The notes under the pieces: generated by a model
Databases searched by the model: none
What the model saw: only the letters and a program-made list of their open reading frames with translations
What the model was told of the DNA's origin: nothing
Program-made: the position numbers and the translations under genes
IMG/VR virus record: IMGVR_UViG_3300025534_000012
Span: 1-48,932 of that record
Source: a virus
Taxonomy: Duplodnaviria > Caudoviricetes
Direction: 5' to 3' (one strand)
Length of the DNA stretch: 48,932 nt
Shown here: positions 30,649 through 45,778 of the stretch, one piece after another
How positions within the stretch are numbered: position 1 is the stretch's first letter
Layout: every line of letters begins with the position of its first letter

Positions 30649-30745
30649 GTTATCACCCCTTTGTATTTACATTGGCGGGCGTATCCACCCGCCTTGCCTT
30701 CCTAACGTATTATACAAACGTGATTTGCATTTCGCACAAATTCGT

Positions 30746-33414
30746 TTATAAGCCGCATTTTAACTGCGCCCCACAATTATCGCAAGTAGCGCAGCCACCG
30801 ATCTCGCGCACGGTTCCTTCACGGCAAATCGGACACGTATCGCCGATTTCATTACCGATATTTACGTTTGTCGATCGAACATCTTTGACGGTGTTAGTAA
30901 GCACGATTTTTGGCGTTATAACGTCATCAAACGTATTTTCCTCGGCTGTCAGCGATAACACTTGCGCGTCGCGCGACCCGTCAACGTAAACCGTTCCGCC
31001 TTTTGCGCCGCCTTTGTAAAGCCGTTCGTAAATTCGCTGTACTTGGTCGACGCCGTAACCTTTCGGTGCGTTAACGGTTTTCGATAACGACGAGTCTACC
31101 CAGCGTTGAATAACGCATTGTGTGTCCGCGTGTTGTTCCGGTGATAAGTCCATCGCGCTAACGAAATAGTCCGGTAGATTATCGCCATCAAAGCCGAGCT
31201 CCGTTACGATGTCCGCGTTTACTTCGATAAACTTGCCGAGTCGGCCACTGCGGTAGTATTTAAACGAGAAATACGGTTCTAGACCGGTGGACACCCCGAT
31301 CATGGTGCCGGTTGAACCCGTTGGCGCAACGGTAAGTAAATGCGAGTTACGGATTCCGTATTTTAATACGTCCTCGCGAATATCATCGGGCATATTGCGC
31401 ATATAACCAGTCCAGACGAAATTGTGTCGGTTACCATAACCGTGTTCATCGTCTAAAAACGGAAAACTTCCTTTTTCCTTCGCTAATTCGATAGACGCGC
31501 TGTAAGCCGTTGTTGCGATTGTCTCGAATAATTTGTCGACTAACTCATTGGCTTCCGCGCTCCCGTAGGTCAGTCCGCAATAAAGAAGTAAGTCATGCAA
31601 GCCCATGACGCCAAGTCCGATACGGCGTTCGCCAAGCGCTTGCCAGCGGTTTTCTGCGAGAAAGTACGGTGTGGCGTCGATAACGTTGTCCTGCATTCGC
31701 ACGCCAACTTCTACGGTACGTTTAAGTTTTGCCCAATCTACGGTTTTATTCGCTTTGTCCGCCATGTTGGCGAGGTTTACTGCGGCCAAATTACATACAG
31801 ACCACGGTGCGAGCGGTTGCTCCGATTGCTCGCGCCTGCGTTTCCGCAGGGATCGGACTATCGCTTCACCATTACGGTGCCGAATCGCTTAGTCTCTCAC
31901 GCTGCACGGTTTACACCTGCTTGCGCCCTGTTGCCCGCGGCTTTCGCCGGTAGGGTTCCAAGTCAATCAGATTCGGTTTTTAACGTGAGGCAAGCCGTTT
32001 AATGCATACCACACGGGTTCGTTGCGACGACCTTTTGACCGTATGCCTTTGCGTTGGTCTTGTCGTTTGCGTTGTCGATAAAGAAAATACCGGGCTCAGC
32101 GCTGTATGTTGCGCAGAAACAAATCAATTGCCATAGCTCACGAGCCTTAACGGTTCGGTACGTTTTAATCGCGAGTGGCCATTCGCGCACGTCGCCGCAC
32201 TCGTGCCAATGCTCGTTATAATACGCCATTTCTTCGGCGTTGTACGACTCAACGTCTGGGAATCGTAATTCGTACTTTACGTCGTCCTCGACGGCTTCCA
32301 TAAAATCAGCGGTAATCGCAACAGAAATGTTAGCACCGGTTAAAAAGTCGGGGTTAACGACTTCATATGTGCCGCCGTCGGCTAGTTTTTCTTGCGCTTT
32401 TTTATATGCAGTCGAACCTGGATCAAGCCGCAATAACGCCTGTTCGTATATTTCACGGTCATCGTCCGATAACGGTTTAAATTTCAGTTTCGCTTTGGCT
32501 AACCGCTTAATTTCGGGGTCAGCGAAGTTTTCCGTAAGATACCGCAAAATGCGTGGGTTTTGCATTTTTGAGATGATAAATTCGATAATATCGGGGTGCC
32601 AACATGCCAATAAAATCATTTGCGCTCCCCTTCGCGAACCGCCTTGCTCGACTAAATGCGTTAACTGCGCAATATCGTTAAGCCACGAAACCGATCCGCT
32701 AGACTTGCCGCCAACACCACGCGCAAGGGCAAGGCGTGGCCGTAACGTGGATCCGTTTGTGCCGACGCCGCCGCCTCGCGCCATGATTTCCATAACTTTA
32801 CCGCGATGCTCTGCGATTCCTTCGCGTGAATCTTTCGGGTACGGCATTACGAAGCAATTAAAGAATGTAACCTCATTACCACTACCTGCTCCGTAAAGTA
32901 TGCGTCCGGCGGGCACGAAATTATCTGATACGATTTCGCGGTAAAAATCGGCGTGTGCTTGCTCGCGTTTTGCCTCATCGGTTTCAACCGCAGCCAATCC
33001 TCGTGCCACGCGGTCAGCGATTTGCTCGTAGAATATTTCGAGTGGCTTTTCGATCAATTCGAGTGGGCGCACAACAACGCCGGTTTTCGCTTCTTCTTCG
33101 GTTAGCCCGTTTGTTCCGAGAAAATCTTCGTCAAGCGCAATCGTCGCTCGGTTATGCTTACGGTCAAGCTTCGTAATAAACCCGAGCACTAGCGCCGGAA
33201 ACTTCGGATCATCGTTAACTTTGACGATAACAAAATCGCCTTCGCTCAGCGTGCGCTTTTCGATGTCTTTAAACGCATATCGGTCAAGCATAACGAGTTG
33301 GCTTACGCCTTTTCGCGTGATATGGAAATCCGGTTTTATCGGCGTAACTTGCGGAAACACCGCAATATCTTCGTTTAGTTTACGTATATATGAATCGGTA
33401 AATGTCGTTGTCAA
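30746..33414 (-). CDS. nrdJ: class II (B12-dependent) ribonucleotide reductase, spliced: exons 33414-32008 and 31822-30746, 827 aa
   Basis: TNPCG|EQPL...CNL restored by splicing; RRIGLG, APTG, C-terminal zinc ribbon; no beta-subunit gene nearby. Confidence 0.9.
31823..32007 (-). ncRNA. group I intron (185 nt, no ORF) in nrdJ
   Basis: U/G boundaries; P1 CGUGuGGU/GCCuCACG; P10 GCUU/GAGC; P7 GAGAGACUA...GAUAGUCC. Confidence 0.9.
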
Positions 33415-40384: not shown

Positions 40385-41083
40385 TCAAAATTGTTCCGTC
40401 GGGTCTGCCGGTTTGCTTTCCACGCCCAACCGCTCAACATCGAAACCGAACGCTTTCAAGTCGGCAACCTGCTCGTCATGCGTTTTAACGTAAAGCACTT
40501 TTTCGTAGAGCTCGTCGGGCACTTTCGCGTCGGCTGTAGCTTCGAACACCTTACGCTCGGCGTCCGATAAATCCTCGTCGTCGAGCGGGGTCAGGCTGAC
40601 CATCGTCGACGTGCCTTGGCCGTCCTTCGCGAGCTCAAACGGCTTGCGTGCGAGTTTTTTCGCGTTCTTTTCGATAGCCGCGATCAGCACCTTGGCTTGC
40701 GCCTTACTTACGTCAACGATAATCGGCTGGCCGTCGGACAAGTTGATGAAACCGAACAAATAACGCGGTTTCGGCTTGAGCAAGTACGCTTTGTTACGGA
40801 GTTCTTCGGCTTTTGCGTCGTCGCCCGCTTCCTCGGCGGCCTTGGCGTCGGCATAAAGCATGTTGGCCGCTTTCTGATACAGATTATCGGATTCAACGGG
40901 CGTCGTGTTAAACACCTTAAACACCGACGCGGCGTAGTACTCGACGTAGTCCTCGTCGCTCGCAATCCGCACTTTGTACGCGGTGCCGGACTTGAACGAG
41001 GCCAGCGCCTTGCTTGCGTTTTCTTGATTTTCGGCGGTGGCGCTCTCAGCCGCCGCTTTTCCTTTTTTAGCGATATAGCTCAC
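40385..41083 (-). CDS. putative ssDNA-binding protein (gp32-like)
   Basis: Acidic C-terminus ending in F; located in the replication cluster. Confidence 0.6.
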   Translation of the reverse strand: MSYIAKKGKAAAESATAENQENASKALASFKSGTAYKVRIASDEDYVEYYAASVFKVFNTTPVESDNLYQKAANMLYADAKAAEEAGDDAKAEELRNKAYLLKPKPRYLFGFINLSDGQPIIVDVSKAQAKVLIAAIEKNAKKLARKPFELAKDGQGTSTMVSLTPLDDEDLSDAERKVFEATADAKVPDELYEKVLYVKTHDEQVADLKAFGFDVERLGVESKPADPTEQF

Positions 41084-41123: not shown

Positions 41124-41183
41124 TTGCCCGCGACAAGCCGCAAACGTTCGCGTTAACGTTCGCGACCTGTCGCCGGCGGGCAA
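41124..41183 (-). other. long RNA hairpin directly after cas12f
   Basis: About 26-bp stem that closes through G.U pairs only in the minus-strand transcript. Confidence 0.6.
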
Positions 41184-41188
41184 TGACG

Positions 41189-42469
41189 TCAATCCATTGC
41201 CGCAAGCTGCGCTTGTTGCGATTCTATGCGCGCTTTTATCATCGACTCAATTCCGGGCGTTGCGATATTTCGCGCGGCGTTGTAGTCGGCATTCGTTTTG
41301 AATCCGCAAAACTGGCAATGAAATTCCGCTTGTGTTTTCCGGTTGCCTTCCGCAATGTGTCCGCACTCCGAACACCGTTGCGACGTATATTTCGGTTCGA
41401 TCATCCGTACTTCGATTCCAGCCTCTTTCGCCTTATACGCGATTTTTTGTTGTAAATCGTAATATGGCCACCGTTTCAAAAACGTGCTATTCGCGCTGAT
41501 TCCGTCGAGTTTTTCGAGTTGAATAACGCCGCAACCGTGTTTAACCGCTTGCTCAACGATAAACTTCGAGTACTTATGATTCGTAGTTTTGCGGAAATCC
41601 TCGACACGCCTGCGTAATTTTTCAATTGGCTTTAACCGCGTTACTCGACCGTGTCCGCGACGACCGTGTCCGCAATACTTGCCTTGCCGTAACAATTCGG
41701 TGCGCCTGCGCTCAATTCTGCGCCGGAATTCGCTAATTTCGCTACCGCCAATAAAATGTCGCTCGGGGCTATCGTTGAACGCGATCACGGCTGCGTTTAC
41801 AACGCCTAAATCAACGCCCATCACTTTCGACTTATCGCGCTGAACTTCGTCAACTTCGTGTGAGTACGCAAGCATTAGGTAATATTTCGTTTTAACCTTC
41901 GCGATTTCGCTGTCGCACATTTTGTATTCACCGCTTATAATTCGGTCGAGTATGACGTTCGCACCCGAACCTGTTCGTAAGGTTACGTCAACTTGCGTGT
42001 CAGTTCCGCGTTCCTTAGCGCCTTCCTTCGACAGTAACGATAGTTTGCAAGCGTAAGTTTTCGCATTGATTCGCACTAGCGACTTTATCGATTGGGCGCG
42101 GATTGGGAACGATCCATCACGTCTATATGACGGAATAGAAATTTCTCCACGAAGTATTTTCGGTTTGTCGTTTTTGAATTTCTTCACCGATTCGTTTATT
42201 GCCGTATCGACAATGGATGACCCTACAAATACCGCTAACCCTTTTATTTGTCCGTTTATATCCGCGGGTAACCCCTTGCCCAGTATATCTTTTTCCTTCG
42301 GATACTCTCCGAATCGGTCGTTATACCCGAACGAAAATTGTTGCCAATCCCACGCTAATTGAGTTGCTTTATTTTTAATCCGCCAAATGGCGTATTGAAT
42401 GTCGTGTAGTAAATTGTATAAATCCTTATCGTAAGCGATTTCGTATCGCATTGTTTTCGTTATTTTCAC
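41189..42469 (-). CDS. cas12f1: Cas12f1-like (type V-F) RNA-guided nuclease, 426 aa
   Basis: GGAGG RBS and GTG at 42469; NKATQLAWDW...GEYPKEKDILG, LRQGKY...GHGR, NHKYS, WPYYDLQQKI resemble AsCas12f1 as I recall it; RuvC D (GVDLG), E (IQLEK) and D (NADYNAA) plus the zinc finger are intact. Confidence 0.88.
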   Translation of the reverse strand: MKITKTMRYEIAYDKDLYNLLHDIQYAIWRIKNKATQLAWDWQQFSFGYNDRFGEYPKEKDILGKGLPADINGQIKGLAVFVGSSIVDTAINESVKKFKNDKPKILRGEISIPSYRRDGSFPIRAQSIKSLVRINAKTYACKLSLLSKEGAKERGTDTQVDVTLRTGSGANVILDRIISGEYKMCDSEIAKVKTKYYLMLAYSHEVDEVQRDKSKVMGVDLGVVNAAVIAFNDSPERHFIGGSEISEFRRRIERRRTELLRQGKYCGHGRRGHGRVTRLKPIEKLRRRVEDFRKTTNHKYSKFIVEQAVKHGCGVIQLEKLDGISANSTFLKRWPYYDLQQKIAYKAKEAGIEVRMIEPKYTSQRCSECGHIAEGNRKTQAEFHCQFCGFKTNADYNAARNIATPGIESMIKARIESQQAQLAAMD

Positions 42470-42499
42470 TTGTAAAACCTCCAAAATGTTCGCTTTAGG

Positions 42500-42661
42500 T
42501 TCGCACCACGCGCCTCTATACGTTGTGACTTCGCACATTGAACGCCGGCCTCGGGAATTATGCTCGCTTCTCATACGCCAATACACGTTTTGACGTCTTC
42601 AGACAATGAAAACGCGGTTAAAAGTTCTTCTCGCTTCTCATACGCCAATACACGTTTTGAC
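42500..42661 (-). CRISPR. mini CRISPR array: two identical 32-nt repeats, one degenerate repeat, two spacers (35 and 33 nt)
   Basis: GTCAAAACGTGTATTGGCGTATGAGAAGCGAG at 42661-42630 and 42594-42563; degenerate copy from 42529 matches 17 of the first 23 nt. Confidence 0.85.
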
Positions 42662-42677
42662 TGCGTAATGACCAGCG

Positions 42678-42745
42678 ATTTATTGCGTATGATTTACCTG
42701 AGCGCCGTTAGGCCTCGGTTTAAGGACGGCGAGTCGCCCTATTCG
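42678..42745 (-). ncRNA. compact tracrRNA-like scaffold
   Basis: Anti-repeat UCAUACGCAAUA (42692-42681); 5' hairpin loop CUCGC is complementary to the repeat 3' end GCGAG. Confidence 0.75.
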
Positions 42746-42759
42746 TTTGACCGCGCCGC

Positions 42760-42858
42760 TTATTTCCAGCGCTCCGTCAGCTTGCGGTCAATTTCGGCAT
42801 AAACATAAGCCGCCGCGATCATGCCGACGATGGTTAGTACGATGACTGGCACGTTCAT
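42760..42858 (-). CDS. 32-aa single-TM peptide
   Basis: GGTGGTG RBS; MNVPVIVLTIVGMIAAAYVYAEIDRKLTERWK. Confidence 0.5.
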   Translation of the reverse strand: MNVPVIVLTIVGMIAAAYVYAEIDRKLTERWK

Positions 42859-42955
42859 TTCGAATCACCACCTTCGGGTCACCGTAGTAGGCGCGGTACA
42901 TGCGCTCGTACTTGCGCCGGCGGGCGTCGGCCAGCGCGACCACCTGCGCGGTCAT
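42788..42955 (-). CDS. small basic hypothetical protein
   Basis: ATGA-coupled; MTAQVVALADARRRK... Confidence 0.4.
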   Translation of the reverse strand: MTAQVVALADARRRKYERMYRAYYGDPKVVIRNERASHRTNHRRHDRGGLCLCRN

Positions 42956-43113
42956 CCCAGCCGCACCGCCTTCGGTAAGCGCACGTAGTCGGCCGGGTCT
43001 TCGTCGGCGGCCGGTGCGCCGTTGTAAACCAATTCCGGGTAGACTTTTTCGTTGTACTGCGTATATAAATCGCGTTTTTTGCGCATACTCTTCGTATAAG
43101 GTTTGCGCTTCAT
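42952..43113 (-). CDS. small hypothetical protein (53 aa)
   Basis: AAGGAGG RBS; MKRKPYTKSMRKKRDLY... Confidence 0.55.
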   Translation of the reverse strand: MKRKPYTKSMRKKRDLYTQYNEKVYPELVYNGAPAADEDPADYVRLPKAVRLG

Positions 43114-43216
43114 TCCGCTTAACCTCCTTAAAAATACGGGGTTCTATTTTTCGCACAAATGACGTATACTTATAACGTAGGGACTAGGGCGTTAGTCGCG
43201 CTTAGCCCCGAGCAAG

Positions 43217-43867
43217 TTAACGCGCAAGCAAATAGTCGCGGTGGCTACCGTACTTTTGCCGATCGAAATGGCCTGCCAGCTTTTCGATGCTGCGTTTAAC
43301 TTGCATATGGTGCAGTCCGAGTTTTTTACCGATTGCCGTCGGTTTGTACGGGCTGTCATCCTCGAGGATCGCTTTGACGATTGCCGTCGTCTTAGCGTCC
43401 ATGTTCTGCGTGAGGAAGTCGATCAGTTGCCGCTGGTCGGCTTCCGTTTTCTTTCGTAACACCTCGGTTGCCGCCGAGTTGTCGGTTTGACTTGCATTGT
43501 TGACCGCTATTTCAAACGGTGTTATCGAATCGTCGCCAAAATCGTGTCCTTCGGGAAACCCGAGCTCACATTCGAGGATTTCGTGTTGCCGTCGTCTTTG
43601 TCGGCGTTTATACAATGTCGCTCTTCTATATCTAAGTGCTTTGTTGAAATACAACTCGAAGTTATCGCCGTTAAAAAGCTCAATGCATTCTAACAACGTA
43701 TCTTCGTACAAGGCGCGTGTCTCGTGTTCATCGGCACGCAAAGACTTCGCGACTTTTCCGTAGTAATCCGCATGTCTTTCGATCAAATAACGGTAAATCT
43801 CGTTAAAATCGCTGTTACTTCGTGTTTCGCGGTACCGAAGCACTAAATCATCGATATTCAATTTCAT
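43217..43867 (-). CDS. sigma-70/ECF-like transcription factor
   Basis: Region-2-like N-terminus (FNEIY...LLECIELF...FELYF) and C-terminal HTH (TAIGKKLGLHHMQVKR). Confidence 0.65.
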   Translation of the reverse strand: MKLNIDDLVLRYRETRSNSDFNEIYRYLIERHADYYGKVAKSLRADEHETRALYEDTLLECIELFNGDNFELYFNKALRYRRATLYKRRQRRRQHEILECELGFPEGHDFGDDSITPFEIAVNNASQTDNSAATEVLRKKTEADQRQLIDFLTQNMDAKTTAIVKAILEDDSPYKPTAIGKKLGLHHMQVKRSIEKLAGHFDRQKYGSHRDYLLAR

Positions 43868-44060
43868 ATCGTTTTCCCCCTTTCAATGTATTATACAAAT
43901 CTCGGCGTATTTTCGCACAAAAAAGTTTAAAATTTTTATCAACCGGGCTTGTACTTGTATTGTAGCACCGAAACATACTGAAACTGTGTTTCTTGCGAAA
44001 ATTTACCGAGGGAAAAATGTTCAATTTTATGTACTGTTTTTAGAAAGTTGACAGTAATAT

Positions 44061-44084
44061 AAAAAGGCGCTCTTTAAGAGCGCC
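44061..44084 (-). terminator. intrinsic terminator after aimP
   Basis: GGCGCTCT-TAA-AGAGCGCC followed by TTTTT. Confidence 0.85.
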
Positions 44085-44092
44085 CAAATTAT

Positions 44093-44236
44093 TTAGGATC
44101 CGCTTCCACCACTTCCGCCGCCCGGATCACTAGTTATTTTTACTTGTGTGGCAGCGTTTTTGTCATTTTGTGTTATACCAACGAAAGAACTTGTAACGAT
44201 TAGTCCTAACAACAATGCAATAATCACCTTTTTCAC
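44093..44236 (-). CDS. aimP: arbitrium pro-peptide, 47 aa (absent from the ORF track)
   Basis: MKKVIIALLLGLIVTSSFVGITQNDKNAATQVKITSDPGGGSGGSGS; signal peptide plus DPGG; immediately downstream of aimR. Confidence 0.85.
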   Translation of the reverse strand: MKKVIIALLLGLIVTSSFVGITQNDKNAATQVKITSDPGGGSGGSGS

Positions 44237-44249
44237 GTCATGTTCCCCC

Positions 44250-45446
44250 CTATTTGAATGTTAAATTTTTAAGCGCAATTTCTGCGATCGTTCCCCAATT
44301 TCCACCAAATTTTAGTAAATCTCGATGTACTAGATTCGCGTAAAACTTTAAACCTGAGTTAATGAATGTGATTAACGATTCATAAAGCAGCACTGGGTCA
44401 TCTAATGCTAATGCTTTGTAATACTGTTTAAACACGGACATGCCTTGTTCCTTAACAGCTTGTTCAATCAATTTTAACGCTTTTTGTTTATCACCCCACC
44501 TTGCCTCCAAGTGCGCAATCTCGGAGATGTCGCTCGTTTTTATTGTTTCTAGTTCCTGGCCATGAACTATTTTCGCGAACACCATATCTTGTTCTTTGAC
44601 TATTTTAGCAGATTCTGTACGACCGTCCAATAATAAAAGATCGTAGTATTGTTTGAAGTAATTCATGGTAGCATCATAGTCATCGAACAGATATGAGTTC
44701 CCTATTGTATAATACGAATGAACTTTAAAAATCGCACAAATATCAGAATCGATAACTCTTTTTGCCAATTTTCTAGCTTTTTTGAAGTCACTATATACAT
44801 TCAAGGCTACGGTCGCCTTAATTTCGGTAAATCTAACCTTATATGAGTTTAGTATAAAATCATCTTCACAATCCAATTCATCAAACAGCGTCTCAGCTTC
44901 TCTTAGAATACGTTCCATGTGCGAGAATTCTTTTTTATGCTGAAGGATAAGGCATTTGATCGATTTTAACAATAATTTTGAGCAAACGCGTGAAGGGATA
45001 GTGTGTTCAATATCGTAAAAAACATCGTCAAAATTCCTTCTGGTTTGTTGATACCTCATAACTAGACTATATACCTTAGCGAGTTCCTTGTTTTCTTTAT
45101 TACCTTCCATAAGTTGGTTTTCAATTATCTTGTCCAAAACATCAAGAAAACGAGCTGTAGAACAGTACTCCATCGCTTCTCTGATTATGTACGGTTTTTC
45201 TGTCTCTAGGACTAAGTTACAAATTTCATACATCAATTCCAGCTCTTTATGCGGACATAAAAAACGAATGAGTTTGATGATCTTATCTAGGTGAAGCATT
45301 TTATCGCCATTCCTAAATCTTGTCACTTCGCTTGGCGTTACGTGCATTATTTTCGCGATTATGTTATTCTTTAGTGTGGTATCATGAGCAATCTCATAGT
45401 TTTCGATTTCGGTTTCGATAATTTTCACGATCGAATTTAGTGGCAA
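44250..45446 (-). CDS. aimR: arbitrium peptide receptor (HTH + TPR, RRNPP family)
   Basis: N-terminal HTH, REAMEY, ELAKVY, TPR-like helices, 398 aa, followed by a peptide gene. Confidence 0.85.
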   Translation of the reverse strand: MPLNSIVKIIETEIENYEIAHDTTLKNNIIAKIMHVTPSEVTRFRNGDKMLHLDKIIKLIRFLCPHKELELMYEICNLVLETEKPYIIREAMEYCSTARFLDVLDKIIENQLMEGNKENKELAKVYSLVMRYQQTRRNFDDVFYDIEHTIPSRVCSKLLLKSIKCLILQHKKEFSHMERILREAETLFDELDCEDDFILNSYKVRFTEIKATVALNVYSDFKKARKLAKRVIDSDICAIFKVHSYYTIGNSYLFDDYDATMNYFKQYYDLLLLDGRTESAKIVKEQDMVFAKIVHGQELETIKTSDISEIAHLEARWGDKQKALKLIEQAVKEQGMSVFKQYYKALALDDPVLLYESLITFINSGLKFYANLVHRDLLKFGGNWGTIAEIALKNLTFK

Positions 45447-45559: not shown

Positions 45560-45778
45560 ATGAAAAAATGCGCAATATCATATCAGCCACTTTTTAATAC
45601 TCTAAAGGAAAAACGCATGAAAATAAGCGATCTCCGACGAAACCGCGGCGAGGCCGACCTACTCCACCCGACGATTATCGCGGCGATAAACCGTAATGAG
45701 CCGATAAATTTACAACATATAGTCGACATCTGTTGTTATTTGAATGTGCCGATTGAAAAAGTTGTACGCATCGAATAA
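45560..45778 (+). CDS. Cro/C1-type HTH regulator
   Basis: ISYQPL...INL..IVDICCYLNVPIEKVV; divergent from aimR. Confidence 0.85.
   Translation: MKKCAISYQPLFNTLKEKRMKISDLRRNRGEADLLHPTIIAAINRNEPINLQHIVDICCYLNVPIEKVVRIE

Follow-up and report, generated by a model that had tools for sequence, protein, structure and literature searches.

Does a phage that carries a peptide-based lysis/lysogeny switch also place an RNA-guided nuclease under the command of that switch? The question is raised by the virus record IMGVR_UViG_3300025534_000012 (Duplodnaviria; Caudoviricetes), a whole 48.9-kb phage contig with a completeness estimate of 82%, whose 48,932 nucleotides (nt) are referred to below as the window: the genes of an arbitrium system are followed, in the same direction, by the gene of a sigma-like protein and by a small CRISPR-Cas12f system. 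Coordinates are those of the window unless another record is named, and features are located on the minus strand unless stated otherwise. The initial annotation had described the order aimR, aimP, terminator, sigma-like gene, three micro-open reading frames (micro-ORFs), trans-activating CRISPR RNA (tracr), array, cas12f and ssb, all parts of which have been found present, and had gone on to infer that Cas12f expression may be gated by the peptide-controlled lysis/lysogeny decision. Our comparison of related phages points elsewhere, with a probability of about 0.58: the tracr, the array and cas12f form an optional 1.6-kb cassette, located in a variable slot between the sigma-like gene and ssb, which would encode an RNA-guided nuclease that, in lytic growth, acts on satellites and other mobile rivals.

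An optional cassette on a shared backbone

The cassette (~1.6 kb, 41178..42768) is a presence/absence allele among close relatives. Contigs from three of the four runs that we have analysed (X2, X3 and X5, from three studies) join position 41175 or 41177 to position 42769 or 42781, skipping the tracr, the array and cas12f, and one contig of 1201 nt retains the ssb and sigma sequence on both sides, at ~95% identity, with the block absent. The empty site holds different fillers among the runs, and the runs with cassette-skipping contigs cover aimR and aimP as well. Cassette pieces that occur in X2, X3 and X4 agree with the window to within 0-1 letters, and many of the pieces from the flanks differ by 3-10%. 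In addition, a single repeat separates spacer 2 from the tracr end in a low-depth X3 contig, suggesting an allele that lacks spacer 1; such an allele would fit array growth at the tracr end.

A Cas12f cassette is located in the same slot in the Bacillus phage Mgbh1, in the phage L130 and in a prophage of the genome G319. No AimR is found anywhere in the complete phage records of Mgbh1 or L130, and the G319 locus has aimR. For a wider comparison, 49 loci were examined, of which nine were dropped for want of primase, sigma or ssb and six as duplicates; the 34 that were kept comprise 20 loci with aimR and without cas12f, 12 with neither, one with both (the window) and one with cas12f alone (Mgbh1), so that 32/34 sigma loci are without cas12f. 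When L130 (without aimR) and the G319 prophage (with aimR), contributed by the Cas12f searches, are added to the association table, aimR is present in two of four Cas12f loci and in 20/32 loci without Cas12f, i.e. there is no association (Fisher p=0.63). By this survey, aimR and cas12f are two independent add-ons on one phage backbone.

The guide RNAs and the nuclease

The predicted tracrRNA (42662..42740) consists of two stems (42723-42740 and 42697-42718) and an anti-repeat (42681-42692). The two predicted hairpins are kept upstream of the array in all four family loci, and Rfam gave no match. The anti-repeat of the window pairs at 12/13 positions with one gap, a result of modest significance by alignment (56/2000 shuffles are as good) and not significant by duplex energy (83/300 shuffles are as good); in Mgbh1, 11/2000 shuffles are as good, and in G319 and L130 the pairing is not significant. 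The mini-array that follows (42499..42661) is composed of two identical 32-nt repeats (R1 42630-42661, R2 42563-42594), two spacers of 35 and 33 nt (S1 42595-42629, S2 42530-42562) and a degenerate third repeat (R3 42499-42529); the four family loci hold 14 different spacers. Just 5' of the ribosome-binding site of cas12f, all four loci share a further motif, read from sequence (42486..42506), that consists of two GCGAAC copies 11 nt apart and may be the relic of a repeat end or serve in autoregulation.

The cas12f gene (41189..42469) encodes a type V-F1/V-U3-like protein of 426 amino acids (aa) with a PF07282 match; an alternative start at 42586 was set aside, as the GTG at 42469 is the most likely start and gives 426 aa, as in Mgbh1. 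The protein matches the 422-aa chain 7wju, which we take to be AsCas12f1, at E 1.6e-111. The RuvC residues D220, E319 and D395 are intact and are present in 120/120 aligned homologues, and the C-terminus is complete. The length of 7wju agrees with the accessible text of PMC7229846. In NCBIfam the protein falls under guided_TnpB, with NF040570 above its cut-off and the Cas12f2 model below; no TnpA family is found among the 17 neighbouring proteins, an array is present, and insertion-sequence ends were not searched for. The 119 closest Cas12f homologues are 48-65% identical to the window protein, and at E<=1e-80 the clade is found in 6/401 genomes of one order sample, in 0/301 of the other and in 1/49 of the G319 family.

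Cas1 is found in none of four records (G000, G319, G741 and G742; Cas2 was not searched for), on which basis we propose that the spacers are acquired through host Cas1-Cas2 in trans. A possible donor of spacers would be an array like that of B. halodurans, whose repeat is presumably of type I-C. The dimensions of the phage arrays, i.e. repeats of 32 nt that start with GTC and spacers of 33-37 nt (42499-42661; L130:5516-5900), resemble the B. halodurans repeat described in PMC5135824, the Mgbh1 paper, whose accessible text mentions host spacers against the phage and no phage-borne array. Two further loci deserve a record here. In the Alicyclobacillus phage MMB025 (L008:4400-4960), two unlike repeat sets are arranged in tandem before one Cas12f, with a possible anti-repeat before each. 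At L132:2-6900, a Cas12f 56% identical to that of the window is followed over the next 5 kb by a pair of helical regulator-like genes, by a cold-shock-like gene, and by scaffold and capsid genes related to those of the window, a content suggestive of a compact element.

Spacer targets and the G319 island

The two spacers of the window have no credible target in any of the collections searched: against the window itself, the best match has 5 mismatches in 20; by blastn against phage and plasmid collections, the best E values are 5-6; 301 genomes gave 0/301 for each spacer at <=3 mismatches in 28 nt; and neither the contigs of the four runs, which lack even a partial match, nor 243 loci contain one. 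Among exact 18-mers of IMG/VR, S1 has 0 matches and S2 has one (L220); this last match was rejected because about one 18-mer match is expected by chance, by a rough estimate of collection size, and it is exact over 20 nt and then diverges (9 mismatches in 33) within a phage region of 60% GC.

A target has been found for the tracr-proximal spacer 1 of G319, which matches G319:C1:1255978-1256009, on the same chromosome as the prophage, at 30/32 positions (E 1.1e-6); the best match of the reversed-spacer control has 12 mismatches. The 5' flank of this one protospacer ends in CTC, which fits the T/C-rich protospacer-adjacent motifs that PMC7229846, in its accessible part, reports for Cas12f1. The protospacer is located within an island of 17.3 kb, bounded by 55-bp direct repeats at a tRNA-Leu gene (L221:345-17716 = G319:C1:1246344-1263715), whose products include two proteins of the integrase family, an AEP-TOTE primase, a capsid scaffold protein and a tape-measure protein. 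Of 21 ORFs scanned, none matches a capsid, portal or terminase family, save for a weak portal match by a NUDIX gene that lies outside the island; a single-protein scan of viral contigs with the island primase gave no match. The scaffold protein is 38% and the tape measure 46-56% identical to those of the G319 prophage itself, and 31% and 35% to those of the window. The island resembles a satellite that belongs with this phage family; to our knowledge, a satellite with a tape measure of its own would be unusual. Homologues of the targeted gene, which encodes 290 aa, occur in 8/251 genomes, and at one of the loci with such a homologue (L238), a tape-measure gene is found as well, together with an aimR-like match.

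Other candidates were examined and rejected, or gave no result. The arrays of L130, G319 and Mgbh1, compared with the phage collection, have non-self matches of E 0.2 or worse, all weak and in non-Bacillales phages; a match of the G394 array falls in intergenic DNA of the host, past the final degenerate repeat, and is not a spacer; and the G031 array has no target within its own genome.

The sigma-like gene and the transcription of the cassette

The gene upstream of the cassette (43217..43867) encodes a 216-aa protein that is sigma-like, as judged from weak profile and structure matches, and short of a proven sigma factor. It matches TIGR02937 at E 1.5e-6 with 28 bits, under the cut-off of 42.9, and has no Pfam or PHROG match; its structure model (pLDDT, a confidence score, of 74.6) has Foldseek matches that, among those listed, are RNA-polymerase/sigma-factor complexes (best E 2.4e-3, TM ~0.3, none at E<=0.001). 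It has 79 homologues and is a conserved backbone gene of the phage family; a single-protein scan of viral contigs gave no match. In L130, a 192-aa gene occupies the sigma position without demonstrable homology to it (probability 2.4%).

A conserved promoter-like motif, TGYGCG-N16-TGTATAAT, is located before the sigma-like gene (43890..43919). Of 26 hand-picked, non-duplicate loci, 20 have an exact TGYGCG at a distance of ~50-68 nt ahead of the sigma start, with little regard to arbitrium (8/12 with aimR and 12/14 without), against a shuffle rate of 0.5%, and a CGTAT/TATAAT-like box usually follows 16 nt after it. The copy of the window, at 43919, sits below the aimP terminator; its score of 15.2 is one that the best hits in shuffled genomes also reach (9.9-16.9), and the case for it is therefore one of position and conservation. 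Further TGYGCG copies on the same strand are found at 30709-30738 (a near copy), 44709-44738 and 43133-43157 (weak). The copy at 44738 is situated inside aimR and, from its position, could drive aimP, in which case signal production would be tied to the sigma-like protein.

The sigma-like gene is followed by three micro-ORFs: the first (42952..43113, 53 aa, phrog_30530) has homologues in many relatives and is a conserved family gene after sigma, the second (42788..42955, 55 aa) is known from the ORF list, and the third (42760..42858, 32 aa) carries the cassette junction in its last codons. Beyond the junction (42769), ~28 nt remain before the first tracr stem (42740). A consensus scan found no sigma-70 site on the minus strand between 44602 and 41250, and no site of the phage motif scores >6 inside the cassette. 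Because no promoter-like site is found in the cassette, and because the space before the first stem is so short, the cassette is probably read from the sigma operon; on this sequence layout, transcription could plausibly run through from upstream, and any arbitrium control of cas12f may then be indirect.

The arbitrium genes

The arbitrium receptor gene, aimR (44250..45446, 398 aa), is identified by PF22871 (E 1.2e-54), by NF038310 (221 bits, cut-off 70) and by matches of solved AimR structures at E ~1e-17. The adjoining aimP (44093..44236, 47 aa) matches NF033802 weakly and below the cut-off (E 0.043); its assignment as the pre-peptide gene is based on this match, on its location, as expected beside aimR, and on its signal-peptide-like hydrophobic N-terminus. 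It has a DPGGG-like motif in common with L020 and L040. The 3' end of aimP (44074-44157) has other letters in the X2, X4 and X5 contigs, and aimR differs by up to ~9-13% among contigs of close relatives; there are probably, to judge from these differences, several peptide types among close relatives.

An intrinsic-terminator-like hairpin, detected by sequence scan, is located 3' of aimP (44065..44085) and is a candidate AimR antitermination site, by analogy with phi3T and SPbeta, where AimR acts as an antiterminator at the terminator after aimP (PMC10769878, accessible part); the term antitermination does not occur in 10.1101/2023.04.27.537455. No clear AimR site was found near the terminator, where the search returned only A/T-run inverted repeats of 6 nt with 15-35 nt spacing. 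Between the terminator and the sigma-like gene there is also an imperfect inverted pair of 22 nt (43901-43922 and 43989-44010), one arm of which contains the promoter-like motif; the pair (43901-44010) is a candidate regulator site.

The sigma-like gene had been placed in the position where aimX usually lies. This holds for the window, where it is the first gene past the aimP terminator, and fails as a general statement: in G319, an xre gene follows aimRP, so that the sigma-like gene is not always in the aimX position. An ORF of 42-58 aa between the terminator and the sigma-like gene was considered as aimX and rejected, since no ribosome-binding site could be seen by eye. In the extended arbitrium described in the accessible text of 10.1101/2025.11.23.689978 (Kabel et al.), a short gene of the helix-turn-helix (HTH) type, aimC, lies opposite and directly downstream of aimP, and aimX has 29-80 aa; the window has no opposing aimC after aimP, as its xre is upstream of aimR and the sigma-like gene comes after aimP. 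The xre gene of G319, downstream of aimRP and in the opposite direction, is in the aimC position of that scheme. The AimR proteins of G319 and the window are 20% identical.

The phage backbone and its relatives

The gene content of the window comprises head, tail, nucleotide-metabolism and replication genes. Its relatives include the Bacillus phages Mgbh1, phi18-2 and 268TH002, as well as Bacillus and Paenibacillus prophages; a temperate lifestyle is reported for 268TH002 (PMC9476937, accessible part), and the G319 prophage is related to the window phage through its terminase (72% identical) and portal (63%). Across the relatives the gene order is conserved, running helicase, primase, (xre), sigma, small ORFs, ssb and polymerase. 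The xre gene of the window (45560..45778, plus strand), of the Cro/C1-type HTH kind (PF13443), is divergent from aimR, and in relatives without aimR, such as L022, its family is directly divergent from sigma; it is likely the phage repressor. On the other side of the cassette, the ssb-like gene (40385..41083) matches phrog_6883 and phrog_9721.

Two genes away from the locus may also be mentioned. A gene at 34941-35933 matches phrog_1706 (annotated as 'CRISPR/Cas system associated'), with no Pfam or NCBIfam match, and its product is, we presume, Cas4-like; because homologues occur also in G319 and G741, it is assigned to the phage backbone. At 30746-33414, the large subunit of ribonucleotide reductase is represented by two ORFs (471 and 347 aa), ~200 nt apart, possibly as the result of an intron or of a split gene.

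Interpretation

If the cassette is an optional weapon of the lytic phase, as we favour, entry into lysis would be followed by transcription of the early operon, including the cassette read from the sigma operon. The sigma-like protein would activate its own TGYGCG promoter, and AimR, by antitermination at the aimP terminator, would prime the self-activating operon; any peptide control of cas12f would thus be inherited from position and not evolved for cas12f. The tracr and the CRISPR RNA (crRNA) would load Cas12f, which would cut excising satellites or other mobile rivals; the cassette would be silent in the lysogen, and host Cas1-Cas2 would add new spacers at the tracr end. An anti-satellite role is likely because the newest-looking spacer in the related G319 matches a satellite-like island; a helper-satellite relation between the prophage and the island would follow the same lines.

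Several points weigh against this reading. The contigs were mapped at 85% likeness, and the joints have sides of 33, 43 and 251 nt, two of the three being short; the table of aimR and cas12f holds few Cas12f loci, from related phages that are not independent. Only one of 14 spacers in the four loci has a target, and it belongs to G319 and is neither of the window spacers; it has two mismatches, one of them at spacer position 7, and because of these mismatches and the failure of the anti-repeat test in that genome, the G319 system may have lost its activity or been escaped. A decayed prophage, rather than a satellite, is a further possible identity of the island, and neither the eight other islands that share the targeted gene nor 60 relatives of G319 yielded a further spacer match. 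The promoter scans detect consensus matches only, and the DNA upstream of the tracr is AT-rich in Mgbh1 and L130. Finally, no integrase-like gene is found among the window ORFs scanned, in a record that is 82% complete, so that the temperate lifestyle has been inferred from relatives.

A bolder form of the same reading, in which the self-activating sigma-like protein replaces the AimX antirepressor, a promoterless Cas12f rides the operon, and satellites are attacked only upon low-peptide commitment to lysis, with Cas12f silent in the lysogen, is put forward as a tentative idea. The cassette might, conversely, possess its own promoter and be constitutive in the lysogen, so as to shield the host against plasmids and superinfecting phages: in E. 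coli, plasmids are blocked by V-U3 nucleases (PMC7229846, accessible part), weak promoters escape consensus scans, AT-rich DNA lies before the tracr of Mgbh1 and L130, and a conserved motif precedes cas12f. We consider this unlikely, given the ~28 nt between the junction and the first stem and the lack of a promoter-like site within the cassette; moreover, the 30/32 target in G319 shares a chromosome with an intact nuclease, a situation that would be easier to tolerate if the nuclease were silent in lysogeny. That a dedicated module unites the arbitrium genes, the sigma-like gene and Cas12f, with the peptide recruited as a CRISPR switch, is the strong form of the view taken in the initial annotation and has become improbable: the run is co-directional with a single terminator-like site, after aimP, phi3T and SPbeta use AimR as an antiterminator at a site of this kind (PMC10769878, accessible part), and two of the four Cas12f loci have aimR, but the association is absent, close relatives with aimR skip the cassette, two complete phages without aimR contain it, the sigma promoter motif is independent of aimR (being found in 12/14 relatives that lack it), and in G319 xre intervenes next to an AimR of so little identity.

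Two other explanations concern the nuclease itself. If the cassette were selfish and homing-like, cutting relatives that lack it and being copied into them by recombination, this would account for cassette pieces that are closer to the window (0-1 letters off) than their flanks (3-10% off) in X2, X3 and X4, which fits recent spread, and for the TnpB ancestry indicated by NF040570; it is nevertheless highly improbable, as the window spacers match nothing in the flanks of their own phage (best 5 mismatches in 20) or, even partially, in the contigs of the four runs, and as the sole target found is the satellite-like island. Least credible of all is a direct partnership of the dCas12f-sigmaE kind, with RNA-guided transcription brought about by binding of the sigma-like protein to Cas12f, a mechanism that the initial annotation had rightly thought less likely because RuvC is intact. 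The two genes adjoin in three of four loci, the L130 gene being the one without demonstrable homology; against this, the C-terminus is complete and the residues D220/E319/D395 are conserved in all 120 homologues, whereas dCas12f proteins are truncated and mostly without arrays (PMC12259090, accessible part), cas12f is absent from 32/34 sigma loci, and the match to 9n9c is weak (E 2.7e-18) in comparison with 1e-111 for active Cas12f1. The arbitrium link is mostly positional; stronger results are provided by the empty-site alleles and by the satellite-like target.

Relation to known systems

The effector fits the known Cas12f1 V-U3 kind, and the logic of the system would, by analogy, match that of ICP1 against PLE and of Cas12r against tRNA-integrated elements; the comparisons that follow refer to the accessible parts of the papers cited. 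With Cas12f1 of types V-F1/V-U3 (PMC7229846), the window system shares an effector in the range of 422-497 aa, the RuvC residues, an array with a putative tracrRNA and the lack of adaptation genes; it differs in being carried by a phage, where it occupies a presence/absence slot within an early operon, and in having its tracr directly before repeat 1, its array before the gene and repeats that end in GCGAG, its activity being a prediction. [quoted passage not shown] Cas12r of the Thermus Lalka phages (10.64898/2026.04.20.719267) is also a small phage type V system with a short array, no adaptation genes and a tRNA-integrated, AEP-primase-bearing target, but it belongs to another effector clade and host phylum and is located among structural genes, whereas the window Cas12f is located among early replication genes, behind a sigma-like gene. 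According to the same source, ICP1 is the one phage-borne CRISPR system with an experimentally shown role.

With the arbitrium systems of the order aimR-aimP-aimX(-aimC-aimL) (10.1101/2025.11.23.689978; PMC10769878), the window shares AimR, an adjoining aimP and a terminator after aimP; it differs in the lack of an opposing aimC and of a convincing small aimX ORF, the first gene downstream encoding instead the 216-aa sigma-like protein with its own promoter-like motif. We have not found this layout described, and it may be listed in the supplements of Kabel et al., which our search did not cover. The dCas12f-sigmaE systems (PMC12259090) are alike in having a sigma-like gene near a cas12f gene, and differ from the window, where the active-site residues are intact, the array is a true one and the sigma gene usually occurs without cas12f. 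In the literature covered, from which subscription papers and supplements are excepted, no report was found that joins arbitrium with Cas12f or describes this system.

Implications

The family offers a natural test set, as its cultured members include one that carries the cassette (Mgbh1) and others that lack it (phi18-2 and 268TH002), and as aimR is present in some members and absent from others; G319 adds one genome that contains both the prophage and the island matched by its spacer. The results also point to a large clade of compact Cas12f proteins with a short tracr beside repeat 1, and to an arbitrium layout in which a sigma-like gene lies past the aimP terminator. If a self-activating sigma-like protein does stand in the place of AimX, with Cas12f riding its operon, these phages would possess a quorum-timed, RNA-guided immunity against satellites, in which the targeted satellite can share the chromosome of the lysogen.

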